Positions 3,341 through 32,401 of a stretch of DNA of 64,000 nt are shown piece after piece (within the stretch, counting starts at the first letter, position 1; every line of letters begins with the position of its first letter). The position numbers and the translations under genes are program-made. This stretch comes from Escherichia coli. Its GTDB lineage: Bacteria; Pseudomonadota; Gammaproteobacteria; Enterobacterales; Enterobacteriaceae. The notes beneath the pieces are model-generated. The model was not told where the DNA came from, did no database searches, and worked only from the letters and a program-made list of their open reading frames with translations. The stretch lies in assembly GCF_044324785.1 (NCBI RefSeq), contig NZ_CP172127.1; one strand, written 5' to 3'.

Positions 3341-3374
3341 AAAAGTGAAAAAGGGGGCCATATGCAGGCCCCCT
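3341..3374 (-). terminator. Intergenic rpsB-tsf hairpin (attenuator-type partial terminator)
   Basis: gggggcc-atatgca-ggccccc at 3353-3373; on the minus strand it is followed by tttttcactttt; sits about 60 nt upstream of the tsf start. Confidence 0.6.
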
Positions 3375-3547
3375 AACCAAACGTGTACTACCTGGTCTAT
3401 AAGGGCTCTCCCCCTTCATATTTCGCGCCGCAGATGCGTTATCTTCGCTCGCTCATCCCGGTCACTTACTGATGTAAGCTCCCGGGAATTCTCGAGCTTG
3501 CCGCCTTTCTGCAACTCGAACTATTTTGGGGGAGTTATCAAGCCTTA

Positions 3548-4495
<948 letters not shown>

Positions 4496-9903: not shown

Positions 9904-10614
9904 ATGGATTATTTTCTCGGCGGCTATATGTTGCTACATTGCCTGCCCGTTGAGGGGCTTCATCCGCAACTTAAAGGTAAACCACTGCTAACGTGCAGTA
10001 CCTGTTTTAATGAAAGTCTGCTTTGTGCCTGGTCTTACGCGTGGTTAGGTTCCGATAAAGACTCTCCTTATGATGGCAATATGTCACTTTACGAACATCT
10101 GGAAGCCACTTTTTTGCTTACAGACGAAGACAGGGAACAGATCCGCATCCGGGCAAATGATTGGTTCAATGAGGATAAAGTTGGCTGGGAAAGTATATTC
10201 ATGGATAAATCGACCGCTATTGAATATAAACAAAGTTTCTTTCCCCATATCGAGAATTGCTACCTTCTTGCAATCTATATCAGAGAACCGAATGTACAAG
10301 AGTTCTCCCTTTATCCATCCCATGATGGTATTGCTGCAAGGCTTCTTCGCAGGCAGCCTGAACGAAATGAAATGGATGAAAAGTTATTAGGTTACGATAT
10401 TCTGGGTCTGGAAATCGGCGGGCAGTTCCATACATCTCACTGCCATCCATTGTATAACGAACTCCACCAGCGCTTCGGTCTCACCCTCAATCAACACGGA
10501 CTTTATAACGAAATCCCGGACTGGCAACCGGTCGTGGACTATATGAACGACGACGCCACGGGATGCGAACCCGTCCCCTGGGGTATCGCCACAATAAAGC
10601 AGGTAATTTTTTGA
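9904..10614 (+). CDS. hypothetical 236-aa acidic protein of unknown function, with an N-terminal Cys cluster; not part of the K-12 gene order as I recall it
   Basis: Intact 236-aa ORF MDYFLGGYMLLHCLPVEGLHPQLKGKPLLTCSTCFNESLLCAWSYAW...; ATG 15 nt after yaeI stop with a GGAG 8 nt upstream; occupies an 844-bp yaeI-yaeH spacer that I recall as about 160 bp in K-12; appears more AT-rich than its neighbours. Confidence 0.6.
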   Translation: MDYFLGGYMLLHCLPVEGLHPQLKGKPLLTCSTCFNESLLCAWSYAWLGSDKDSPYDGNMSLYEHLEATFLLTDEDREQIRIRANDWFNEDKVGWESIFMDKSTAIEYKQSFFPHIENCYLLAIYIREPNVQEFSLYPSHDGIAARLLRRQPERNEMDEKLLGYDILGLEIGGQFHTSHCHPLYNELHQRFGLTLNQHGLYNEIPDWQPVVDYMNDDATGCEPVPWGIATIKQVIF

Positions 10615-12485: not shown

Positions 12486-13910
12486 TTACTGCATTAACAG
12501 GTAGATGGTGCTGTCGCCGCGCTGAATGTTCAGTGCCAGCACAGACGGTTTGCTGTCGAGAACTTTACGCAGTTCAGCGATATTTTTCACTGCCTGCTGG
12601 TTCGCGCCAATAATCACATCACCTTTTTTCAGGCCGATCTGCGCAGCCGGAGTGCCCGTTTTCACGTTGTTCACTACCACGCCCTGATCTTTGCCTTTGT
12701 TGCTCATCTCAGCGCCTTCAATGCCGTTGAAGATGGAGCTGGAATCAACCTGATTCTGGCTGCTCTGCTGCAGTTCCAGGTTCACGTTAACCTGCTTACC
12801 GTCGCGCAGTAAGCCCAGGGTCAGTTTGCTACCCACCGGCATAGTACCCACCTGAGCACGCAGCGCGGCAAAGCTGCTGATTGGCTTACCGTTCAGTGAG
12901 GTGATCACATCACCCGCTTTAATGCCCGCTTTTGCAGCGGAGGAGTTAGGCAGAACCTGGCTTACGAAAGCACCGCGCTGGGCGTCAACTTTCATCGCTT
13001 TCGCCAGTTCGGAGTTCAGCTCAGTCCCCATAATACCCAGCTCACCGCGTTTCACCTGGCCGTATTCCACCATCTGAGAGGTCAGGTTTTTCACCATGTT
13101 ACTCGGGATAGCAAAACCGATACCGATGTTGCCGCCGTCCGGTGCGAGGATCGCGGTGTTGATACCGATCAGTTCGCCGTTCAGGTTAACCAACGCACCA
13201 CCGGAGTTACCACGGTTGATCGCTGCATCGGTCTGGATGAAGTTTTCGTAGTTTTCAGCATTCAGGCCGCTACGCCCCAGCGCAGAGACAATCCCGGAAG
13301 TTACCGTCTCACCCAGACCAAACGGGTTACCAATTGCTACGGTGTAATCACCCACGCGCAGTGCATCAGAATCCGCCATCTTAATTGCGGTCAGATTTTT
13401 CGGGTTCTGGATCTGGATCAGCGCGATATCAGAGCGCGGATCTTTGCCAACCATCTTCGCGTCGAACTTACGACCATCGCTCAGCTGGACTTTAATCACC
13501 GTCGCGTTATCAACAACGTGGTTGTTGGTGACGACATAGCCTTTATCGGCATCAATGATGACGCCGGAACCCAGCGCCATGAATTTCTGTTGCTGGCCGC
13601 CGCCATTACCGCCCTGGCCCCCCTGGCAGAACGGAGAGCTCTGGAACGGAGAACCTTCCTGGCAGAACGGAGAATCATCACCGAAGAACTGCTGGAAATT
13701 ACGCGGCATACGCGGCGTATTAACGGTTGTGCTACCTTCTACGTTAATGCTGACCACTGAAGGCATCACCTTTTCGAGCATCGGTGCAAGGCTTGGCATC
13801 TGCTGGGCTGTCGTTGCTGAAGAAGTCTCAGCCGCCGTTGCAGAGAGCGGAGATAACGCCAAACCTAAACTCAGAGCCAGTGCACTCAGTGCTAATGTGG
13901 TTTTTTTCAT
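12486..13910 (-). CDS. degP: periplasmic serine endoprotease / chaperone DegP (HtrA)
   Basis: 474-aa ORF MKKTTLALSALALSLGLALSPLSATAAE...; signal peptide, trypsin-like GNSGGAL motif, two PDZ-like C-terminal regions. Confidence 0.97.
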   Translation of the reverse strand: MKKTTLALSALALSLGLALSPLSATAAETSSATTAQQMPSLAPMLEKVMPSVVSINVEGSTTVNTPRMPRNFQQFFGDDSPFCQEGSPFQSSPFCQGGQGGNGGGQQQKFMALGSGVIIDADKGYVVTNNHVVDNATVIKVQLSDGRKFDAKMVGKDPRSDIALIQIQNPKNLTAIKMADSDALRVGDYTVAIGNPFGLGETVTSGIVSALGRSGLNAENYENFIQTDAAINRGNSGGALVNLNGELIGINTAILAPDGGNIGIGFAIPSNMVKNLTSQMVEYGQVKRGELGIMGTELNSELAKAMKVDAQRGAFVSQVLPNSSAAKAGIKAGDVITSLNGKPISSFAALRAQVGTMPVGSKLTLGLLRDGKQVNVNLELQQSSQNQVDSSSIFNGIEGAEMSNKGKDQGVVVNNVKTGTPAAQIGLKKGDVIIGANQQAVKNIAELRKVLDSKPSVLALNIQRGDSTIYLLMQ

Positions 13911-13949
13911 GTATTTCAGTCTCGATTAACAGATAACGCAAAATTGCTG

Positions 13950-13990
13950 TGTTCTTCAGATTCGTTTTATAGCGCGAAGTTCCGAACTAA
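13950..13990 (-). promoter_or_regulatory. sigma-E type promoter of degP
   Basis: Minus-strand read gives GGAACTT-16 nt-TCTGA (plus-strand aagttcc at 13977-13983 and tcaga at 13956-13960), which fits the sigma-E consensus, about 40 nt upstream of the degP ATG. Confidence 0.65.
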
Positions 13991-19911: not shown

Positions 19912-21192
19912 ATGAGTAAGTCTGAAAATCTTTACAGCGCAGCGCGCGAGCTGATCCCTGGCGGTGTGAACTCCCCTGTTCGCGCCTTTACTGGCGTGGG
20001 CGGCACTCCACTGTTTATCGAAAAAGCGGACGGCGCTTATCTGTACGATGTTGATGGCAAAGCCTATATCGATTATGTCGGTTCCTGGGGGCCGATGGTG
20101 CTGGGCCATAACCATCCGGCGATCCGCAATGCCGTGATTGAAGCCGCCGAGCGTGGTTTAAGCTTTGGTGCACCGACCGAAATGGAAGTGAAAATGGCGC
20201 AACTGGTGACCGAACTGGTCCCGACCATGGATATGGTGCGCATGGTGAACTCCGGCACTGAAGCGACCATGAGCGCCATCCGCCTGGCCCGTGGTTTTAC
20301 CGATCGCGACAAAATCATTAAATTTGAAGGTTGTTACCACGGTCACGCTGACTGCCTGCTGGTGAAAGCCGGTTCTGGCGCACTCACGTTAGGCCAGCCA
20401 AACTCGCCGGGCGTTCCGGCAGATTTCGCCAAACATACCTTAACCTGTACTTATAACGATCTGGCCTCTGTACGCGCCGCTTTCGAACAGTACCCGCAAG
20501 AGATTGCCTGTATTATCGTCGAGCCGGTGGCAGGCAATATGAACTGCGTTCCACCGCTGCCAGAGTTCCTGCCAGGTCTGCGTGCGCTGTGTGACGAATT
20601 TGGCGCGTTGCTGATCATCGATGAAGTGATGACCGGTTTCCGCGTAGCGCTAGCTGGCGCACAGGATTATTACGGCGTAGTACCAGATTTAACCTGCCTC
20701 GGCAAAATCATCGGCGGTGGAATGCCGGTAGGCGCATTCGGTGGTCGTCGTGATGTAATGGATGCGCTGGCCCCGACCGGTCCGGTCTATCAGGCGGGTA
20801 CGCTTTCCGGTAACCCGATTGCGATGGCAGCCGGTTTCGCCTGTCTGAATGAAGTCGCACAGCCGGGCGTTCACGAGACGCTGGATGAGCTGACAACACG
20901 TCTGGCAGAAGGTCTGCGGGAAGCGGCAGAAGAAGCCGGAATTCCGCTGGTGGTAAACCACGTTGGCGGCATGTTCGGTATTTTCTTTACCGACGCCGGG
21001 TCCGTGACGTGCTATCAGGATGTGATGGCCTGTGACGTGGAACGCTTTAAGCGTTTCTTCCATATGATGCTGGACGAAGGTGTTTACCTGGCACCGTCAG
21101 CGTTTGAAGCGGGCTTTATGTCTGTGGCGCACAGCATGGAAAATATCAATAACACCATCGATGCTGCACGTCGGGTGTTTGCGAAGTTGTGA
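19912..21192 (+). CDS. hemL: glutamate-1-semialdehyde 2,1-aminomutase
   Basis: 426-aa [53 protein letters not shown]... Confidence 0.97.
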
Positions 21193-21198
21193 TGATTT

Positions 21199-21221
21199 TG
21201 CCTCGCCCACCGGGCGAGGCA
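21199..21221. terminator. Hairpin between convergent hemL and fhuB
   Basis: gcctcgccc-accg-ggcgaggc at 21200-21220 with weak flanking T/A tracts; the spacer is only 34 bp. Confidence 0.5.
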
Positions 21222-21226
21222 TTCGA

Positions 21227-23209
21227 TTAACGGCTCTGCTTTCTCAACAAATAGATAAAATACGGCGCGCCGATAAAGGTCGACAGCAGCCCCGCTGGGA
21301 TCTGGAATGGAAACAGCACCATCCGCCCACACCAGTCAGCGAACACCAGCAGTAAACCACCCACCAGCGCCGAAATTACGATGTGCGGCATCGTCCGTCG
21401 AAAGCCCATCATCCGCGCAATATGCGGTGCCATTAAACCAACAAAACTCAACGGTCCAATGGTCATTGTCGCGGTCGCCGTCAGGCAAGCCGCTAACAGC
21501 AGCAGCGCAATTCGCGTCGGCGTCAGCGCCATTCCCACGGCTCGTGCGGTATCACCTCCCAGCGGTAAAATGGTCAGCCAGCGGCGGCACAGCGGGGTAA
21601 TCGCCAGCAAAATCACCATCACAATTCCCGTGCGCCAGACCTGCGCATCGGTCGCGTTGTAGGTCGAACCGGAAATCCAGGTCAGAACTTGCGCCATTCG
21701 CGGGTCACCACTTGCCTGCAACATCATCAAAAGCATGGTGAACGCGGTACTTAACGCCATCCCCGCCAGTAACATGCGGTGTGGGGAAAATCCACCGCGT
21801 CCGGCGGCGATCATAATGATCAACAGCGTCACTGCCGCCCCGAGACTTCCCGCGGGTAACAGCCAGCCAAAGGCATTACCCGGCACCAGAAACAGCATTA
21901 ATACCACGCCAAACGCCGCGCCGGAGCTAATCCCCAGCACTTCCGGGCTTGCCATCGGGTTGCCGGTCAGCCGCTGAATAATACAGCCCGCCACCGCCAG
22001 CATGACGCCCGCAAACAGCGCCGCCATAATTCGCGGCCAGCGCCAGGGCATCAAATCCTCGAGCAACGCCCCGCTCGCCCACGTCCAGCCGTGCGCATCA
22101 CGACCAAACGACAGCGCCACCACCACAGCCATCAACAGCAGCACGCCGCCCGCGAGGGCAAACGCCAGCACATGTTGGCGTTCAGCAGCGACACGATCGT
22201 TCACCTTCATATCCGGCGCGCTAATGCTGCGTAAACGCGGCAGCAGCCACAGCAGCAGCGGCGCACCGAGGAGCGCAGTGACCGAACCGGTAGAAACTTC
22301 CATCCACACGCGAGTCAGCCAGAGGATGATTTGATCAGAAAGCCACAGAATTAACGCCCCAATCAGCGACGCCAGCATCAATCGTGGCAACAAACGCCGC
22401 GCCCCCAGCATTTTTGCCAGCAGCGGCGCGAACAACCCGATAAAGCCGATAATCCCCACTGCATTCACCAGCAGCGCACTGATGACTATCGCCAGCGACA
22501 GCGCCGCCAGACGCGCCAGCGACAAGGCCAGACCGAGATTGCGCGCCACGCCATCATCAAGCCCCATCAGGGTTAACGGGCGAAGTAGCAATAATGTCAG
22601 CATCACGCCGCCCAGCAGCTGCGGCCATAAACGCTCAACGCCGCCCCAGTCGGTTTGCGTCAGCGTTCCGGTGCTCCACAGGAACATGCTTTGTAGCTGG
22701 TCGTGATGGAAGATAACCAGTAACTGATTGATTGCTCCGCAATAAAGGCTCACCACCAGCCCCGCGAGGATCAGCGTTACCGGCGACAGCCGTTTCCCCC
22801 ACGCGACGCCAAAGACAATTAAGCCAACAACGCAAGCCCCTGCCAGCGCAGCAAACTGGCTCGCCATAGCACCTGGGATCGCCCAGAGCGTAGTGACGGT
22901 AATCCCCAGTTGCGCGCCTGTTGCAACGCCCAACGTCGTCGGTTCCGCCAGCGGGTTACGCAGCACTTGCTGAAACAGCACACCCACCAGCCCCAGGCCC
23001 GCGCCCACCAGCAGCGAAATCGCCAGACGCGGCAACAAGCTGTAGTGAAAAATCATCTGCTCGATGACATCGATATCCGGCGACCAGGCAGCCTGCGCCC
23101 ACTGGCTACGCGGCAGCGCTTGCGAAAAGTTCATCCAGGTGAGCGCCGCTGCGACAATCACCAGCAGCGCCAGCAATAACGCCGGGAAAAGCGCAATTCG
23201 TTTACTCAC
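21227..23209 (-). CDS. fhuB: ferric hydroxamate ABC transporter permease
   Basis: 660-aa ORF MSKRIALFPALLLALLVIVAAALTWMNFSQALPRSQWAQ...; duplicated FecCD-type permease halves. Confidence 0.97.
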   Translation of the reverse strand: MSKRIALFPALLLALLVIVAAALTWMNFSQALPRSQWAQAAWSPDIDVIEQMIFHYSLLPRLAISLLVGAGLGLVGVLFQQVLRNPLAEPTTLGVATGAQLGITVTTLWAIPGAMASQFAALAGACVVGLIVFGVAWGKRLSPVTLILAGLVVSLYCGAINQLLVIFHHDQLQSMFLWSTGTLTQTDWGGVERLWPQLLGGVMLTLLLLRPLTLMGLDDGVARNLGLALSLARLAALSLAIVISALLVNAVGIIGFIGLFAPLLAKMLGARRLLPRLMLASLIGALILWLSDQIILWLTRVWMEVSTGSVTALLGAPLLLWLLPRLRSISAPDMKVNDRVAAERQHVLAFALAGGVLLLMAVVVALSFGRDAHGWTWASGALLEDLMPWRWPRIMAALFAGVMLAVAGCIIQRLTGNPMASPEVLGISSGAAFGVVLMLFLVPGNAFGWLLPAGSLGAAVTLLIIMIAAGRGGFSPHRMLLAGMALSTAFTMLLMMLQASGDPRMAQVLTWISGSTYNATDAQVWRTGIVMVILLAITPLCRRWLTILPLGGDTARAVGMALTPTRIALLLLAACLTATATMTIGPLSFVGLMAPHIARMMGFRRTMPHIVISALVGGLLLVFADWCGRMVLFPFQIPAGLLSTFIGAPYFIYLLRKQSR

Positions 23210-24943: not shown

Positions 24944-27133
24944 TTAGAAACGGAAGGTTGCGGTTGCAACGACCTGACGTTCTGCGCCCCAGAAGCAGCC
25001 ATAGGTCTGGAAGCAACTGGCAACATACTCACGATCGAGCAAATTGTTGACGTTCACAGCAAGGCTGGATCCCGCCATACCAAAGCGTGCCAGATCATAT
25101 TTTACAACAGCATCCATTACAGCTGCGCTACCCACTTTAAAAGTGTTCGCCGGATCACCATAGCTGGAACCAATAAAACGACCACCTGTTCCCAATGTTA
25201 AACCAGAAAGCGGCCCTTCATTGAAGGTATAATCCCCCCAGAGAGATGCCATATGCTCCGGTACTTGTTCTGGAGTTTTACCTTTGAGATTGGTGTCTTT
25301 GGTGTATTCCGCATCGGTGTAGGTATAAGAAGCCGTCAAGTTAATATTGGCATTTAACGCCGCTTTTGCTTCAAGTTCCACACCACGAGCGCGAATCTCA
25401 CCTGCCGGGACTTGCGCTAATGGGTTTGTTGGGTCTGCTGTCAGGTTATTTGTTTTCGTCAATTGATAGACTGCGCCCGTAACAACGACCGGCATATCAT
25501 TCGGAACATATTTTACGCCAGCTTCATACTGTTCACCTTTCGATGGCTTATAGGAAACGCGCGGGTTGCTCCACAGATCGAAAGCACTCGGTTCAAAGGA
25601 CTGGCTATAGCTAAAGTAAGGTGAAATACCATTATCGAATAAGTAATTTACACCACCGCGCCAGGTGAACTGATGATCATTGCGCTCAATATAACCTTCA
25701 GTCGGCGTATAAGAGTTTTCACGAACAGTGGTCGCTTGCTTAGACCAATCGTAGCGTCCCCCCAGAGTGAATACCCATTTATTCCATTCCGCCTGATCCT
25801 GAACATAAATACCTGTTTGTTTGCTTTCATTCATCTGGTATGGCTCTGCGCTACCAAATGCAAAGTATTCAGGATGGTATTTGTTATAAAGATCGATGGA
25901 TGGTGCAGATCCAAAGCTGGCATTGATATCATTGCGCATACGCATGAAGTCTACCCCTGTCAGCAAAGTATGCCCGACGTCACCTGTAGCAAACTTACTT
26001 TCAAGCTGGGTATCAACGCTAAAGTTTTGTAGACGCTCATTATCCACCACTGTCCCGCGGTTTAGGGTATGACCATCGCTGGCAATCCCTGTGCCATAAA
26101 CACTTTTCTGTGAGGTTTTCATTTCACTGAAACGCAGATTCTGACGCACGGTGAAGGTGTCATTAAAACCATGTTCAAAACTATATCCCACCATTTTCTG
26201 GTTACGGGAGTATGTATTATTCGATGCACCTTCATTGAAGTCAGTCGGTAGACGCTTACCATTAGGCAATGGCTCAACGGTCCCCTCTTTCGGCAACCAA
26301 CCGTAATAACCCGTTTCTGGTTCGTTCTGAAAATAGGACAGGAAAGTAAAATTGGTTTTGTCGTCTGGACGCCATGAGAATGATGGAGCAATGGTATAAC
26401 GCTGAGATTCAGAGTTTTTCTGCTGTTCGTTTGTTGAGCGTGCGAGGCCAGTCAAACGGTAGGAGAACTCACCGTTATCATCCAGCGCATCACTGAAATC
26501 GAATCCGGTCTGAAACAGATTATCCGTCCCCATTTTAAACTGAATTTCTTTCAGGGGTTCAGTTGTCGGACGCTTACTCACCATAGAAATAATCCCACCA
26601 GGATTACTTTTCCCATAGAGAACAGACGTCGGCCCGCGCATCAGTTCAACCCTCTCGAGCATGTAAGGATCAATCACAGCATCGTTATAAAAGTTGCCCT
26701 GAAGTTTTAGTCCATCAAGGTAATTATTTTGATTCAGACCAACAGATGAGAAACCACGAATGATAACAAAATCATATGTATTAGAAGCACCACGACTGCT
26801 AACCGTAACGCCAGGTGTATAACCTAATGCTTCTTTTACAGACTGAAATTGATGCATCTGCATCTCTTCATTTGTCACAACCGAAATAGACTGCGGCGTT
26901 TTTTCAATTGGTGTATCCGTTTTAGTCGCAGTAGCAGAGTGCTTCGCCGCAATAGTTGCAGCCGGTCCCCATGCGCTTTCTTGCGGCGCAGGTGCAGCGG
27001 TAACGGTGATAGTGTCTTCTTTCGGTTCAACCGCTGCCTGTGCATAAACAGACATGCCGCTAACCGCTGTGGCTACTACAACTGCGATTTTACGCAGTGA
27101 GTGTTTTGGCTGAGCAGTTTTGGAACGCGCCAT
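24944..27133 (-). CDS. fhuA: TonB-dependent ferrichrome outer-membrane receptor; allele 18 aa shorter than K-12 FhuA
   Basis: 729-aa ORF MARSKTAQPKHSLRKIAVVVATAVSGMSVYAQAAVEPKEDTITVTAAPAPQESAWGPAATIAA...; TonB-box-like DTITVTA, C-terminal VATATFRF; K-12 FhuA is 747 aa. Confidence 0.93.
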   Translation of the reverse strand: MARSKTAQPKHSLRKIAVVVATAVSGMSVYAQAAVEPKEDTITVTAAPAPQESAWGPAATIAAKHSATATKTDTPIEKTPQSISVVTNEEMQMHQFQSVKEALGYTPGVTVSSRGASNTYDFVIIRGFSSVGLNQNNYLDGLKLQGNFYNDAVIDPYMLERVELMRGPTSVLYGKSNPGGIISMVSKRPTTEPLKEIQFKMGTDNLFQTGFDFSDALDDNGEFSYRLTGLARSTNEQQKNSESQRYTIAPSFSWRPDDKTNFTFLSYFQNEPETGYYGWLPKEGTVEPLPNGKRLPTDFNEGASNNTYSRNQKMVGYSFEHGFNDTFTVRQNLRFSEMKTSQKSVYGTGIASDGHTLNRGTVVDNERLQNFSVDTQLESKFATGDVGHTLLTGVDFMRMRNDINASFGSAPSIDLYNKYHPEYFAFGSAEPYQMNESKQTGIYVQDQAEWNKWVFTLGGRYDWSKQATTVRENSYTPTEGYIERNDHQFTWRGGVNYLFDNGISPYFSYSQSFEPSAFDLWSNPRVSYKPSKGEQYEAGVKYVPNDMPVVVTGAVYQLTKTNNLTADPTNPLAQVPAGEIRARGVELEAKAALNANINLTASYTYTDAEYTKDTNLKGKTPEQVPEHMASLWGDYTFNEGPLSGLTLGTGGRFIGSSYGDPANTFKVGSAAVMDAVVKYDLARFGMAGSSLAVNVNNLLDREYVASCFQTYGCFWGAERQVVATATFRF

Positions 27134-27352: not shown

Positions 27353-29878
27353 TTAATTACTACCAAACATATCCTTGATCCAACCAGCTACACCGTCGCT
27401 GTCTTTCTGCTCTTGCTGAGCAGGTTGCTGTTGCTGCGGCTGAGAAGACTGATCAAACGGATTGCCTGACGGTTGCTGCTGCATCTCACTCTGCTGGCAC
27501 AGCGATTGCGGATCGCTGGTCCAGACCGGCAAGACACGCATACCACCGCTGCAAACAAAGTTGCCGTCGTAGTCCACGCCCATATCTGCAATATCTTCTG
27601 GCGGAACAAGATTTAGCGGCGTTGGCGTCTGGTTAGCCAGATAACGCTGATAAATCGACATTGCCCCGCTGGCTCCATACAGTTTGGTCGGCTGGTTGTT
27701 ATCACGGCCGACCCAGGTGATGGTCACCGTGCTGCCGTCAATGCCCGCAAACCAGGTATCTACGTTGTTGTTGGTAGTCCCGGTTTTTCCCGCCAGATGC
27801 AGATTTGGATATTTCGCCCCAAGCTGACGCCCCGTACCACGTTGTACCACCTGCTGCATGGTCCATAGTGTCAGATACGCCGCCTGCGCCGGAACAGCGC
27901 GTTCTGCCTGCGGGAAGCTCTGATACAGCACCTTGCCATCTTCCGCGATTACCGAACGCAGCGCAGAAAGCGGAGCACGGTTACCGCCGCTGGCGATGGT
28001 CTGGAATGCCTGCGCCACTTCGATTGGCGTTAAGTTCAACGCCCCCAGCAGCATCGCCGGAACCGGATGCAGCTGATCTTTCGGTACGCCCAGTTTAATC
28101 CAGGTCTCCGTAACCGCAGGCAGCCCCAGCGCCATCCCCAGATTTACCGTCGGCACGTTCATCGAACGGGTCAACGCATCCACCAGCATCACTCTGCCGC
28201 TTTCGCTATAACGACGGTCATCGTTCTGCGGTGACCAGACCTGGCCATTTGGCTGACGCAGCGCGATTGGCGCATCCGCAATCCACGTATTCAGACGATA
28301 GATTTTCGGCTGGCTTAAAGCCGTCAGATAAGTCGCTGGTTTTGCAAGGGAACCAATCGAACGACGCGCCTGCATCGCACGGTTGTAGCCCGCAAACTGC
28401 GGCTCAGAACCACCGACCATCGCACGAACTTCACCGCTAAAGCGGTCAACAACCACAATCGCGGTTTCAAGATCGCTCAACTTACGCTGTTTCTTCAGTG
28501 CCGGAATGCCTTCCACGGCGGCTTTTTCTGCCGCGTCCTGGGCCACCGAGTCAAAGGTAGTGAAGATCTTCACGCCGGAGAGATCTTTTACCTTATCGCC
28601 TAATTTCGCCTGCAGCTCCTGACGCACCAGTTGCATAAAGGCTGGCTGAGGAGAGATCACCCCACCGCGCGGCTGAACACCCAGCGGACGTGCACTCAAC
28701 ATATCATAGAGTTCTTGATCAATAATCTGTTGCTGTTGCAGCAAACGTAGCACCAGGTTACGTCGCTCCAGCGCCAGTTTCGGGTTACGCCACGGGTTGT
28801 AGATGGACGCCCCTTTAACCATACCCACCAACAGCGCCTGCTGATCGAGGCTCAATTCTTCTACCGGACGACCAAAGTAATACAAGCTCGCCAGCGGGAA
28901 GCCGCGGATTTCGTTGTCGCCGCTCTGACCGAGATACACCTCGTTCATATACAGCTCAAGAATACGGTCTTTGCTGTAACGCGCGTCCATGATCAGCGCC
29001 ATGTAAGCTTCGTTCGCTTTACGCCAGTAAGAGCGCTCGCTGGAGAGGAACAGGTTTTTCACCAGCTGTTGCGTCAGCGTACTCGCACCCTGCACCGTGC
29101 GTCCGGCGGTCAGGTTTGCCAGCACCGCACGCCCAATTGAGTAGAGGCTGATCCCATCATGTTCGTAGAAATGACGGTCTTCTGTCGCCAGCAAAGTATC
29201 CACCAGCAAATCCGGGAAACCACTGCGCGGCACAAACAGACGCTGCTCACCGTTTGGCGAAGAGATCATGGTGATCAGACGCGGATCAAGACGGAAGAAA
29301 CCGAACTGACGGTTGTTCTCCATATTGACGATCGTCGCCAGATGATCGCCATCAAAGGTCAGACGTGCACGCACCTGCCCTTCTTTACTGTCCGGGAAAT
29401 CAAACGGACGGCGGATCATCTCAATGCTGTTGGCCTGCACGGTAAATTCGCCGGGACGGGTCATTTTCGACACCTGACGATACTGGGTCGCCTCCAGCAG
29501 CTTCACCATCTCGTTCTTGCTGATGGTCATGTCTGGCTCAAGGTTGACCATCCGGCCATAAACTGCCGCGGGCAGTTGCCAGACCTTACCATCAATACGG
29601 CTGCGAATTTTTTGATCGAGATAAACGCCGTAAATGGCGATCAGCACGGCAAAAACGATAGCCAGTTTTAGCAGCAGCCATAGCCAGCCGCGTTTGCCAC
29701 GAGGCTTACGCCCTTTGCCTTTGCCCTTACCTTTGCGCGGCATCGGTTCTTCATCCTCATAGTCATCATAATCGTCGTAATCATCGTCATCTTCGTAACG
29801 ACGACGGCTTACCTTTTGTTTGACCGGACGCGTCGGTTTCCCTTTGCGTCCAATTGGCTCGCGGTCATTCCCGGCCAT
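27353..29878 (-). CDS. mrcB: penicillin-binding protein 1B (bifunctional glycosyltransferase/transpeptidase)
   Basis: ORF track 846 aa; start at [20 protein letters not shown]... gives 844 aa; acidic [15 protein letters not shown] and basic [17 protein letters not shown]-terminal tracts. Confidence 0.96.
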
Positions 29879-29971
29879 GCTTTTTCTCCGCAATATTCAG
29901 GCGCAAAAGCCCGATTTTCTGTTCTTCTGTTGCAAGACAGAAGAAGATATCTCTCAAATTTACTTTGATCT

Positions 29972-32401
29972 TCACGAATACTTTTTCGTTCGTCGCGTTG
30001 GTGCTGTGTTTGCCGGGTCGTCCGGCCAGACATGTTTGGGATAACGCCCTTTCATCTCTTTTTGCACCTCACGGTACGCTCCTTTCCAGAAGGCGCTCAA
30101 ATCACGCGTGATTTGCAGCGGCCTTTGGGCAGGGGAAAGCAACTCCAGCACCAGCGGCACGCGCCCCTGAGCGATCGTCGGATTGGTGGCCTCACCAAAC
30201 ATCTCCTGCATTCTCACCGCCAGCGCGGGCGGGTTATCTTCATGATAACGAATGGCGATCCGGCTTCCCGTCGGCACAGTGTAATGCGCAGGCAATTCAC
30301 TATCCAGACGTTGCTGCATTCCCCAATCAAGTAATCCGCGTAGTGCCTGATAAATGTCGAGTGATTTCAGGCCGCGTAGTGAATGCACGCCGCTCATATG
30401 CGGCAGTAGCCACGTTTCCAGCGTCGCCAACAAACTCTCATCATCAACCGCTGGCCAGTCATATTCCGGCAACCACTTTGCGGCGCATAACAAACGCAAG
30501 CGTAGCTGTTCCGCTTCCGCCGTCCAGTTGAGCACGCTTAAACCTTTATCACGAATGCCGTTAAGCATCGCCTGATGCAACTCGTCTTCCGAGGGTTTCG
30601 CCAGCGGCTGCACTTTCACCGTCAACTGACCGATTTGCAGCCGACGCCAGGCTTTCAGCGTACCTTGCGCGTCATCCCACTCCACAGTGTCAGACTGCTG
30701 TACCAGCTGCGGACAGCGTTGTACTAACTCATCAATATCGACCGGCAGCGCCAGTAAAATCCGTGCATCCGGCGAGGCGCTGCCCTGCAATAATAACGGT
30801 GCGATCAACCATTCGTGGCGGCTTAGCGCATCGTCGGCATCGAGCATCGCCCCCATGCCGTTTGCCAGTTGATAGCGTCCATCTTGCCCACGGCGACGAG
30901 CAATGCGATCGGCATACGCCCCGGCAAGTAGCGGCGCGATAAGCGAACTGTCTGCCTCACCGCCGCGTACGTTTAAACGTTTTAACAGTTGCTGACTACG
31001 TTGCTGCCAGGCGGGTTGATTGCGCGAAAATGCCACGCCCAGGTCACAATTGCCCATCCGTGGCGGCTCTTCGAGAATAGCGGCAATTTTTGCCGCGGTA
31101 GCAGCTTCGTCGTCGCTCTTCGCGCTCACCAGCATTGCCGCTAAACGCGGATCGTTACCCAGCGCCGCCATTTTTTGCCCTTGCGCGCTTAGCCGTTCGC
31201 CATCCAGCGCTCCCAGCATCCGTAACAGGCGTTTCGCGGCCTGTAAATTCACTGCTGGCGGTTGATCCAGCCAGCTCATCTGCGCCGGATCGCTGCATCC
31301 CCATTGCAGTAATTCCATCAGCAAACCGGAAAGATCGCTTTGTAAGATCTCCGGTTCACTTTGCGCGGCAGCGCGTTCTGCTTGTTCTTTGGCGATTAAA
31401 TGCAGGCAGATACCCGGCTCCAGACGCCCGGCGCGCCCGGCACGCTGCGTCATGGATGCCTGACTAACGCGTTGAGTAATCAACCGCGTAAGCCCCGTGC
31501 GCGGATCAAAACGCGCCACACGCTCCTGGGCACAATCCACCACCAGACGAATACCTTCGATGGTTAAACTTGTTTCAGCAATATTGGTCGCCAGCACCAC
31601 TTTGCGCATTCCTTGCGGTGCCGGAAGGATCGCTTTTCGCTGATCGTTCAGCGACAACGCGCCATACAGCGGGCAGAGCAACACATCACTGCCGATGCGC
31701 GAAGCCAGTTGTTCCTGCACGCGCTGAATTTCTCCGACGCCAGGTAAAAATAACAGTAATGATCCGCTTTCCTGACGCAGCATTTCGGCGGTGGCTACCG
31801 CAACGGCTTCGTCAAAACGCTGATGCGCGGGCAGCGGTAAATAACGGCGTTCAACCGGAAACGAGCGCCCTTCTGAGATGACGACGGGCGCTTCTGGCAG
31901 CATTTGCTGCAAGCTGTCGTTGTCCAGCGTAGCCGACATAATCAGCAGTTTAAGGTCATCACGCAGACCTTGTTGCACATCGAGTAACAGCGCCAACGCC
32001 AAATCCGCCTGCAAGCTGCGCTCATGAAATTCATCAAGGATCACCAATCCAACACCGCTCAGTTCCGGGTCACGCTGGATCATGCGCGTCAGCACGCCTT
32101 CGGTAACCACTTCCAGGCGGGTATTCGGCCCGACGCAGTTTTGCGCACGCATCCGGTAGCCAACGGTATCGCCTGGCTTTTCGTTAAGCAGCTCCGCCAG
32201 TCGTTGCGCAACGTTACGCGCCGCCAAACGACGCGGCTCCAACAGGATAATTTTCCCGTTAATGCCGGGATGCGCCAGCAGTTGCAGCGGCAGCCAGGTT
32301 GATTTCCCGGCCCCGGTCGGCGCACTTAATAACACCTGCGATGCACAATCGAGAGCGGTAAGTAATTCAGGTAAGACGGCAGCAACGGGCAACGACGACA
32401 C
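29972..32401 (-). CDS. hrpB: ATP-dependent RNA helicase HrpB (DEAH box)
   Basis: ORF track 824 aa from ATG at 32446; K-12 length (809 aa) and a 73-bp spacer to thpR correspond to the GTG at 32399-32401; Walker A SAPTGAGKST and DEFHER motifs. Confidence 0.9.
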   Translation of the reverse strand: MSSLPVAAVLPELLTALDCASQVLLSAPTGAGKSTWLPLQLLAHPGINGKIILLEPRRLAARNVAQRLAELLNEKPGDTVGYRMRAQNCVGPNTRLEVVTEGVLTRMIQRDPELSGVGLVILDEFHERSLQADLALALLLDVQQGLRDDLKLLIMSATLDNDSLQQMLPEAPVVISEGRSFPVERRYLPLPAHQRFDEAVAVATAEMLRQESGSLLLFLPGVGEIQRVQEQLASRIGSDVLLCPLYGALSLNDQRKAILPAPQGMRKVVLATNIAETSLTIEGIRLVVDCAQERVARFDPRTGLTRLITQRVSQASMTQRAGRAGRLEPGICLHLIAKEQAERAAAQSEPEILQSDLSGLLMELLQWGCSDPAQMSWLDQPPAVNLQAAKRLLRMLGALDGERLSAQGQKMAALGNDPRLAAMLVSAKSDDEAATAAKIAAILEEPPRMGNCDLGVAFSRNQPAWQQRSQQLLKRLNVRGGEADSSLIAPLLAGAYADRIARRRGQDGRYQLANGMGAMLDADDALSRHEWLIAPLLLQGSASPDARILLALPVDIDELVQRCPQLVQQSDTVEWDDAQGTLKAWRRLQIGQLTVKVQPLAKPSEDELHQAMLNGIRDKGLSVLNWTAEAEQLRLRLLCAAKWLPEYDWPAVDDESLLATLETWLLPHMSGVHSLRGLKSLDIYQALRGLLDWGMQQRLDSELPAHYTVPTGSRIAIRYHEDNPPALAVRMQEMFGEATNPTIAQGRVPLVLELLSPAQRPLQITRDLSAFWKGAYREVQKEMKGRYPKHVWPDDPANTAPTRRTKKYS

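Follow-up and report, generated by a model that had tools for sequence, protein, structure and literature searches.

The 64-kb stretch of Escherichia coli DNA analysed here (hereafter, the window) contains three intergenic spacers that are shorter than their counterparts in strain K-12. One separates the convergent genes hemL and fhuB, another lies between hrpB and mrcB, the gene coding for PBP1b, and the third separates the convergent genes cueO and gcd. The positions of these spacers, their flanking genes and the elements found within them are as follows (coordinates are those of the window):

19912-21192, + strand: hemL (426 aa), left flank of the first spacer, assigned from its ORF and homology
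21193-21226, no strand: hemL/fhuB convergent spacer of 34 bp, hairpin allele without a BIME; the TGA of hemL ends at 21192 and fhuB ends at 21227
21199-21221, no strand: GC-rich hairpin GCCTCGCCC-ACC-GGGCGAGGC, with arms at 21200-21208 and 21212-21220, an ACC loop and a closing T-A pair
21227-23209, - strand: fhuB (660 aa), right flank of the first spacer, assigned from its ORF, homology and collinearity with strain ESC818
27353-29878, - strand: mrcB (PBP1b, 841 aa), with its ATG at 29878
29879-29971, - strand: hrpB-mrcB spacer of 93 bp, empty-site allele without the HPG (probably BoxC) pair; the hrpB stop codon lies at 29972-29974
29879-29958, - strand: 80-nt core, from TTGAGAGAT to GCGGAGAAAAAGC and then the ATG, delimited in an alignment of 65 Enterobacteriaceae loci
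29922-29945, - strand: hairpin 1, TTCTTCTGT-cttgca-ACAGAAGAA, inside the core, with a 9-bp stem
29959-29971, - strand: variable 13 nt from the hrpB stop to the conserved core, delimited in a four-way alignment of the window, E. whittamii, AH21 and K-12
29972-32401, - strand: hrpB, its start set by homology to the annotated 2,430-bp gene (the longest ORF reaches 32446)
55409-55454, no strand: cueO/gcd convergent spacer of 46 bp, third empty site; the K-12 counterpart has 201 bp and a BIME-1

The HemL protein of the window was 98.8% identical to that of K-12, and the collinear strain ESC818 has this gene annotated as hemL. In K-12 MG1655 (NC_000913.3), the hemL/fhuB spacer has 157 bp (173445-173601; fhuB ends at 173444 and hemL at 173602), and that between hrpB and mrcB has 195 bp (164535-164729; hrpB ends at 164534 and mrcB starts at 164730). 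Direct measurement therefore gives a difference between K-12 and the window of 123 bp at hemL/fhuB and 102 bp at hrpB-mrcB. The first-pass annotation had assigned 34 and 93 bp to the two spacers of the window and about 157 and 195 bp to those of K-12; all four values proved exact, and equal lengths in the two strains are excluded (157 vs 34 bp, and 195 vs 93 bp).

No complete E. coli genome showed more than 98.4% identity to the window over 24 kb (positions 12000-36000), and the per-kb identity to the best match, that of strain ESC818, lay between 89.8% and 99.9%. The DNA comes from a mosaic or rare E. coli lineage without a representative among complete genomes. That the strain is not K-12, as the first-pass annotation also stated, is confirmed by an fhuA allele only 69-75% identical to that of K-12 and by flanking genes that are 95-99% identical. 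This divergent fhuA receptor allele (24944-27133, - strand), whose DNA is 99.4-99.9% identical to that of ESC818, sits inside flanks that are 95-98% identical. An unnatural sequence had been suspected from the low DNA identity to K-12 (90-92%) relative to the protein identity (99.4%), and was rejected after a sliding-window comparison, since the divergent fhuA explains these values. MrcB has 841 residues, as compared with 844 in K-12, owing to the loss of one QQP unit from the Q-rich C-terminal tail (PQQQPQQQPAQQ becoming PQQQPAQQ); it also carries one I-to-V change. A segment at 9-10.5 kb of the window, missing from ESC818, was suspected to be an insertion sequence, which would have hinted at Shigella; this was discarded, as it corresponds to yaeI plus an unknown ORF. 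The ORF (9904-10614, + strand) lies between yaeI and yaeH, codes for 236 aa and contains no Pfam domain. None of the 5,426 complete E. coli genomes contained the approximately 675 bp that carry it. A few draft E. coli assemblies code for a protein of 99% identity in an identical gene context, within DNA only about 98% identical to that of the window, and relatives with 56-61% identity were present in E. albertii, Pseudocitrobacter and Enterobacter. The Rfam matches at the gathering threshold were all on the - strand and correspond to the CssrA sRNA (3353-3462), the t44 RNA upstream of rpsB (4301-4387) and the thermometer of the HtrA (degP) 5′-UTR (13905-13950), all of them expected for this region.

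At hemL/fhuB, the window and K-12 coincide on the hemL side as far as one base past its stop codon and on the other side as far as the stop codon of fhuB, with nothing in common in between. A first alignment with MAFFT suggested a simple insertion in K-12, an interpretation that was abandoned because the sequences show full replacement. The 34-bp spacer of the window (TGATTTTGCCTCGCCCACCGGGCGAGGCATTCGA) contains a hairpin with a perfect 9-bp stem (10 bp counting the closing T-A pair) and a 3-nt loop, which lies 7 nt past the stop codon of hemL and 5 nt past that of fhuB. Folded as RNA, its predicted free energy was -25.3 kcal/mol for the + strand (z -4.9) and -20.6 kcal/mol for the - strand (z -3.9). 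No U-tract was present 3′ of the hairpin on either strand, the tails being AUUCGAUUAA (+) and AAAAUCAUCA (-), and a terminator scan of the hairpin returned no sites. Since there is no T-run on either strand, the hairpin is not a canonical intrinsic terminator.

The K-12 spacer was searched by blastn-short with consensus sequences for the y, z1 and z2 REP units. In order, it contains a y iREP (TGTCGGATGCGGCGTGAACGCCTTATCCGACCTAC) separated by a 15-nt linker from a z2 REP (GTAGGCCCGATAAGACGCGCCAGCGTCGCATCGGGCA), and finally a decayed third y. The match to the consensus was 94.6% over 37 nt for z2, 94.3% over 35 nt for y, and 86% over 21 nt for the decayed y. At an independent K-12 locus, cueO-gcd, the same consensus sequences matched at 100% (z1) and 97% (y), which supports the use of these sequences. 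The REP foot, a conserved GTAG/CTAC tetranucleotide present on the imperfect y and z palindromes of 30-40 nt (PMC3333891), was visible in the hemL/fhuB cluster of K-12, and a megablast search located this segment at a median of nine other, unannotated places per genome. The cluster thus has what defines REP/BIME elements: y and z palindromes with their feet, y and z2 in inverse orientation, dispersion in the genome in high copy number and an extragenic location. The combination of y and z2 units corresponds to BIME-2, whose units occur in tandem in a copy number that varies among strains (PMC3333891).

The situation between hrpB and mrcB was different in kind. Alignment showed a clean 102-bp insertion in K-12, located immediately past the hrpB stop codon, at the hrpB-proximal end of the variable 13-nt stretch. 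The insert is an inverted G-rich pair in which GGGAGAGGGCCGGGGTGAGGG (HPG2) and GGGAGAGGGTTAGGGTGAGGG (HPG1) are both present as exact matches; the first arm reads TTTTCTCCCTCTCCCTGTGGGAGAGGGCCGGGGTGAGGGCATCAGCGCGCAC, and the second arm, inverted, is the one carrying GGGAGAGGGTTAGGGTGAGGG. HPG1 and HPG2 have been described as conserved motifs, putative G-quadruplex-hairpin-duplex switches, in which the HPG core is preceded by a complementary C-rich hairpin arm; two of them were placed between hrpB and mrcB of K-12, at 164569 (+) and 164608 (-) (PMC5100583). A single long hairpin of -74 kcal/mol (z -8.0) is predicted for the pair. The identity of this insert as a REP was ruled out: it lacks the GTAG foot and the y and z sequences, the REP consensus gave no match in K-12 164535-164729, and the HPG arms alone matched there. 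To judge from its size and copy number, the pair probably belongs to the BoxC repeat family. The HPG arms are about 50-55 bp long, and this intergenic element has a low copy number, with a median of 11 places per genome and a maximum of 26 (counts of 11-26 in strains other than K-12). These values are compatible with a BoxC unit of 56 bp (51-59) that is present in about 22-33 copies in K-12 (33 copies in one account and 22-32 in another; PMC5172473, PMC2267715). Neither spacer of the window matched an Rfam family at the gathering threshold; more permissive matches were due only to chance, as in the case of eukaryotic miRNA hairpins matching the long palindrome of K-12.

A third hrpB-mrcB allele, 132 bp long, was found in E. 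coli AH21 (locus L082, 248-379). It equals the K-12 form minus 63 bp; the deletion runs between two CCCTCTCCCT direct repeats and leaves a single hybrid hairpin. In addition, a 95%-identical copy of the HPG2/HPG1 pair (107 bp) was located between phnD and phnE in E. coli 2020N21-110-24 (locus L083, 601-708). This copy suggests that the HPG2/HPG1 composite has moved, or has been copied, recently.

The first-pass annotation had guessed, from length alone, that REP elements were absent from both spacers of the window. This holds for hemL/fhuB, where the extra DNA of K-12 is a REP cluster, albeit one that replaces a hairpin; it does not hold for hrpB-mrcB, where the extra DNA is the HPG2/HPG1 pair and contains no REP. 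Of the check it had proposed, alignment with K-12 together with REP annotation, the alignment revealed the replacement at one site and the insertion at the other; the RefSeq records of MG1655 and W3110 have no repeat features annotated.

The rest of the window was inspected for the same elements. Neither REP nor HPG sequences were found anywhere in its 64 kb, using both the consensus sequences and the REPs of K-12 and E. whittamii as queries. An initial search with a fixed-loop REP consensus gave no matches, but it was blind to y-type REPs, which have a shorter loop, and was replaced by blastn-short. For the HPG cores, the pattern CCCTCTCCC-N4-GGGAGAGGG had no match in the window with up to two mismatches allowed, and a blastn-short search with either HPG arm did not produce matches there either. 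The homologous 70 kb of K-12 hold exactly three repeat loci, namely hemL/fhuB, hrpB-mrcB and cueO/gcd. In the last of these, the 201-bp spacer of K-12 includes a consensus BIME-1 (z1 plus y), while the 46 bp of the window contain only a hairpin, GCCCGGA-TCTC-TCCGGGC.

The frequency of each allele was determined in 5,426 complete E. coli genomes, a collection that is rich in clinical clones and does not represent a natural population. At hemL/fhuB the short allele of the window was present in 3,703 genomes (68%) and the K-12 allele in 1,701, so that the K-12 form is the minority one (31%). At hrpB-mrcB the short allele was found in 1,881 genomes (35%) and the K-12 allele, here in the majority, in 3,248 (60%); about 5% of the genomes had neither form, the 132-bp allele of AH21 being among these. 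The empty form of cueO/gcd was present in 2,376 genomes (44%). K-12 has the long form at both hemL/fhuB and hrpB-mrcB, and ESC818, like the window, has the short form at each of these sites; O157:H7 strains appeared among the genomes that are short at hemL/fhuB and among those that are long at hrpB-mrcB.

The direction of these changes was analysed in species-representative genomes, which were scanned with FhuC and provided at least 80 loci; E. albertii, E. fergusonii, E. marmotae and S. enterica subsp. enterica are not among the loci listed. The hrpB-mrcB spacer of E. whittamii has 93 bp and differs from that of the window at three bases, indicating that the K-12 form is an insertion. The hemL/fhuB spacers of Intestinirhabdus alba and three Citrobacter species measure 35-36 bp, can be aligned end to end with that of the window, and keep the stem GCCTCGCC...GGCGAGGC. 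The presence of this hairpin at the same place in Citrobacter and Intestinirhabdus identifies the hairpin allele as the older one. The hemL/fhuB spacer of E. whittamii, in turn, has 440 bp (locus L002, 11168-11607) and consists of 4.5 tandem y-z2 units of BIME-2, whose junctions coincide with those of K-12. The first 105 bp of this BIME were about 90% identical to that of K-12; the flanks were 93-95% identical between E. coli and E. whittamii, and reached 97-99% within E. coli irrespective of the allele present. The identity of about 90% and the shared junctions point to a single, old replacement, both alleles being approximately as old as the split of the two species. The coexistence of the alleles in Escherichia could be explained either by persistence or by ancient exchange. 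The direction of change at this site is not entirely clear-cut: the nearest outgroup among the loci listed, E. whittamii, carries the BIME, and recombination within Escherichia might in principle have restored the hairpin allele. A smaller possibility is that the hairpin and BIME alleles constitute a trans-species polymorphism maintained since before E. coli and E. whittamii separated.

Among the listed loci that have both flanking genes, the hemL/fhuB spacer ranged from 33 to 533 bp, with two more of about 1.84 kb, and the hrpB-mrcB spacer from 79 to 664 bp. Both sites have been filled independently in different genera, either by REP pairs or by HPG-like units, present singly or in several copies. 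At hrpB-mrcB, every one of these insertions was located between the hrpB stop codon and the 80-nt core that precedes mrcB.

This core was present in all 65 Enterobacteriaceae loci examined, with large parts that were invariant. Its layout is TTGAGAGAT-ATCTTCTTCTGTC-loop-GACAGAAGAA-...-GAAAATCGGGCTTTTGCGCCTGAATATTGCGGAGAAAAAGC-ATG, and it includes the -35 box (TTGAGA) of a proposed mrcB promoter and the Shine-Dalgarno sequence. The promoter, recognized by sigma-70 and with the sequence TTGAGA-17-TGTAAC, was assigned to the region between hrpB and mrcB in a SELEX study (PMC3946193). Its -10 box falls in the loop of hairpin 1, is not conserved outside Escherichia and reads TGCAAC in the window. 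In hairpin 1, 96% of the alignment cells of the 65 loci can pair, five of the pairs show compensatory changes and one of them takes six pair types. None of 500 shuffled alignments reached the score of the hairpin, and slid controls gave just 48-60%. About 9.5% of the cells are G-U pairs; as these would be A-C mismatches on the opposite strand, they point to an RNA that is transcribed in the direction from hrpB to mrcB. RNAalifold also predicted pairing of an invariant UCUUCU with the Shine-Dalgarno region (GGAGA), neither side of which varies. No Rfam family matched the core. The core may be a leader of mrcB or a structure of the hrpB 3′ end. It is conceivable, if improbable, that it is an undescribed cis-regulatory leader for PBP1b synthesis, perhaps modulated by the upstream repeats, including the G-quadruplex-capable pair of K-12.

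Taken together, the two short spacers are very probably alleles without insertion, at sites that in K-12 hold dispersed palindromic repeats. At hemL/fhuB, an old spacer of 34 bp with a hairpin would have been wholly replaced, in K-12-type genomes, by 157 bp of BIME-2-type REP DNA. At hrpB-mrcB, the 102-bp inverted HPG2/HPG1 pair would have been inserted straight after the hrpB stop codon, and the 132-bp allele would have arisen later from the K-12 form by the 63-bp deletion. We infer that the repeats came by the usual REP/RAYT-type or recombinational routes. Those next to mrcB would land, and be tolerated, only upstream of the core because the latter is functionally constrained. The hairpin of the hemL/fhuB spacer, for its part, may act as a 3′-end stabiliser, or as a weak terminator, for both converging mRNAs.

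The differences might have arisen in the opposite direction, the E. coli ancestor having had the repeats and the lineage of the window having lost them precisely through secondary deletions. The BIME allele that E. whittamii carries at hemL/fhuB would fit with this, as would the 132-bp form, which is a genuine internal deletion of an HPG pair (63 bp between direct repeats). A deletion, however, cannot create a 34-bp hairpin sequence that has orthologues in Citrobacter and Intestinirhabdus and shares nothing with the BIME allele; moreover, the 93 bp of the window have the length found in E. whittamii, with three different bases and no scar. We therefore consider such deletions very unlikely. 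The chance that the short spacers are artefacts, produced when palindromic repeats collapsed during sequencing or assembly, is close to nil. Long GC-rich palindromes, such as that of -74 kcal/mol in K-12, are indeed difficult to sequence, but the finding of the same short alleles in 3,703 complete genomes at hemL/fhuB and 1,881 at hrpB-mrcB, together with 2,376 at cueO/gcd, already refutes this explanation, and the best collinear genome, that of ESC818, is short at both hemL/fhuB and hrpB-mrcB.

A different question is whether the alleles are kept by selection, in which case the repeats would alter expression and the short forms would be adaptive and not neutral empty sites. At hemL/fhuB, this would be the case if, for example, the BIME-2 bound gyrase or stabilised mRNA; at mrcB, the example would be a G-quadruplex/hairpin switch placed upstream of the promoter. 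The hemL/fhuB alleles seem as old as the split between E. coli and E. whittamii (a BIME identity of about 90% vs 93-95% for the flanks), all allele combinations are seen at intermediate frequency, the HPG element immediately precedes the -35 box of the proposed mrcB promoter, and functions have been published for BIMEs, as has the proposal of a switch for the HPG motifs (PMC5100583). On the other hand, the haphazard and independent filling of the sites in many genera resembles junk that is tolerated in a permissive spot, and recombination can also keep old alleles. Maintenance by selection appears unlikely.

The presence or absence of BIME and BoxC/HPG elements in different E. coli strains is ordinary and has been known since the 1990s, and the biological weight of the differences reported here is small. 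They show, nevertheless, that K-12 is not the strain best suited as a reference for intergenic lengths, and they correct the assumption that some 100 bp of extra DNA in K-12 have to be REP sequences. The hemL/fhuB, hrpB-mrcB and cueO/gcd spacers provide three cheap markers for strain typing. In addition, REP and HPG/BoxC elements have landed repeatedly, in many genera, just past a stop codon that is followed by a constrained promoter or leader.

As regards known systems, polymorphism of REP/BIME elements in E. coli intergenic regions, both in presence or absence and in copy number, has been reported (Bachellier et al. 1997, Genetics 145:551, as referred to in PMC3333891). The hemL/fhuB locus is similar to the BIME-2 case, with a y-z2-y cluster at the 3′ ends of convergent genes in K-12 and a repeat-free allele in the window; the copy number also differs by lineage (1.5 units in K-12 and 4.5 in E. 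whittamii). The BIME-1 of K-12 at cueO/gcd follows the same pattern of presence and absence relative to the window. The hemL/fhuB spacer of the window itself has no REP and holds a single, unrelated hairpin, which the BIME replaced and did not join. This stable GC-rich stem-loop between convergent genes resembles intrinsic terminators and 3′-end stabilisers, although it differs from a canonical rho-independent terminator in having no U-tract. Finally, the inverted arrangement of HPG2 (+) and HPG1 (-) at hrpB-mrcB of K-12 is the same as that described at ygfF-gcvP, alx-sstT and lldD-trmL (PMC5100583).
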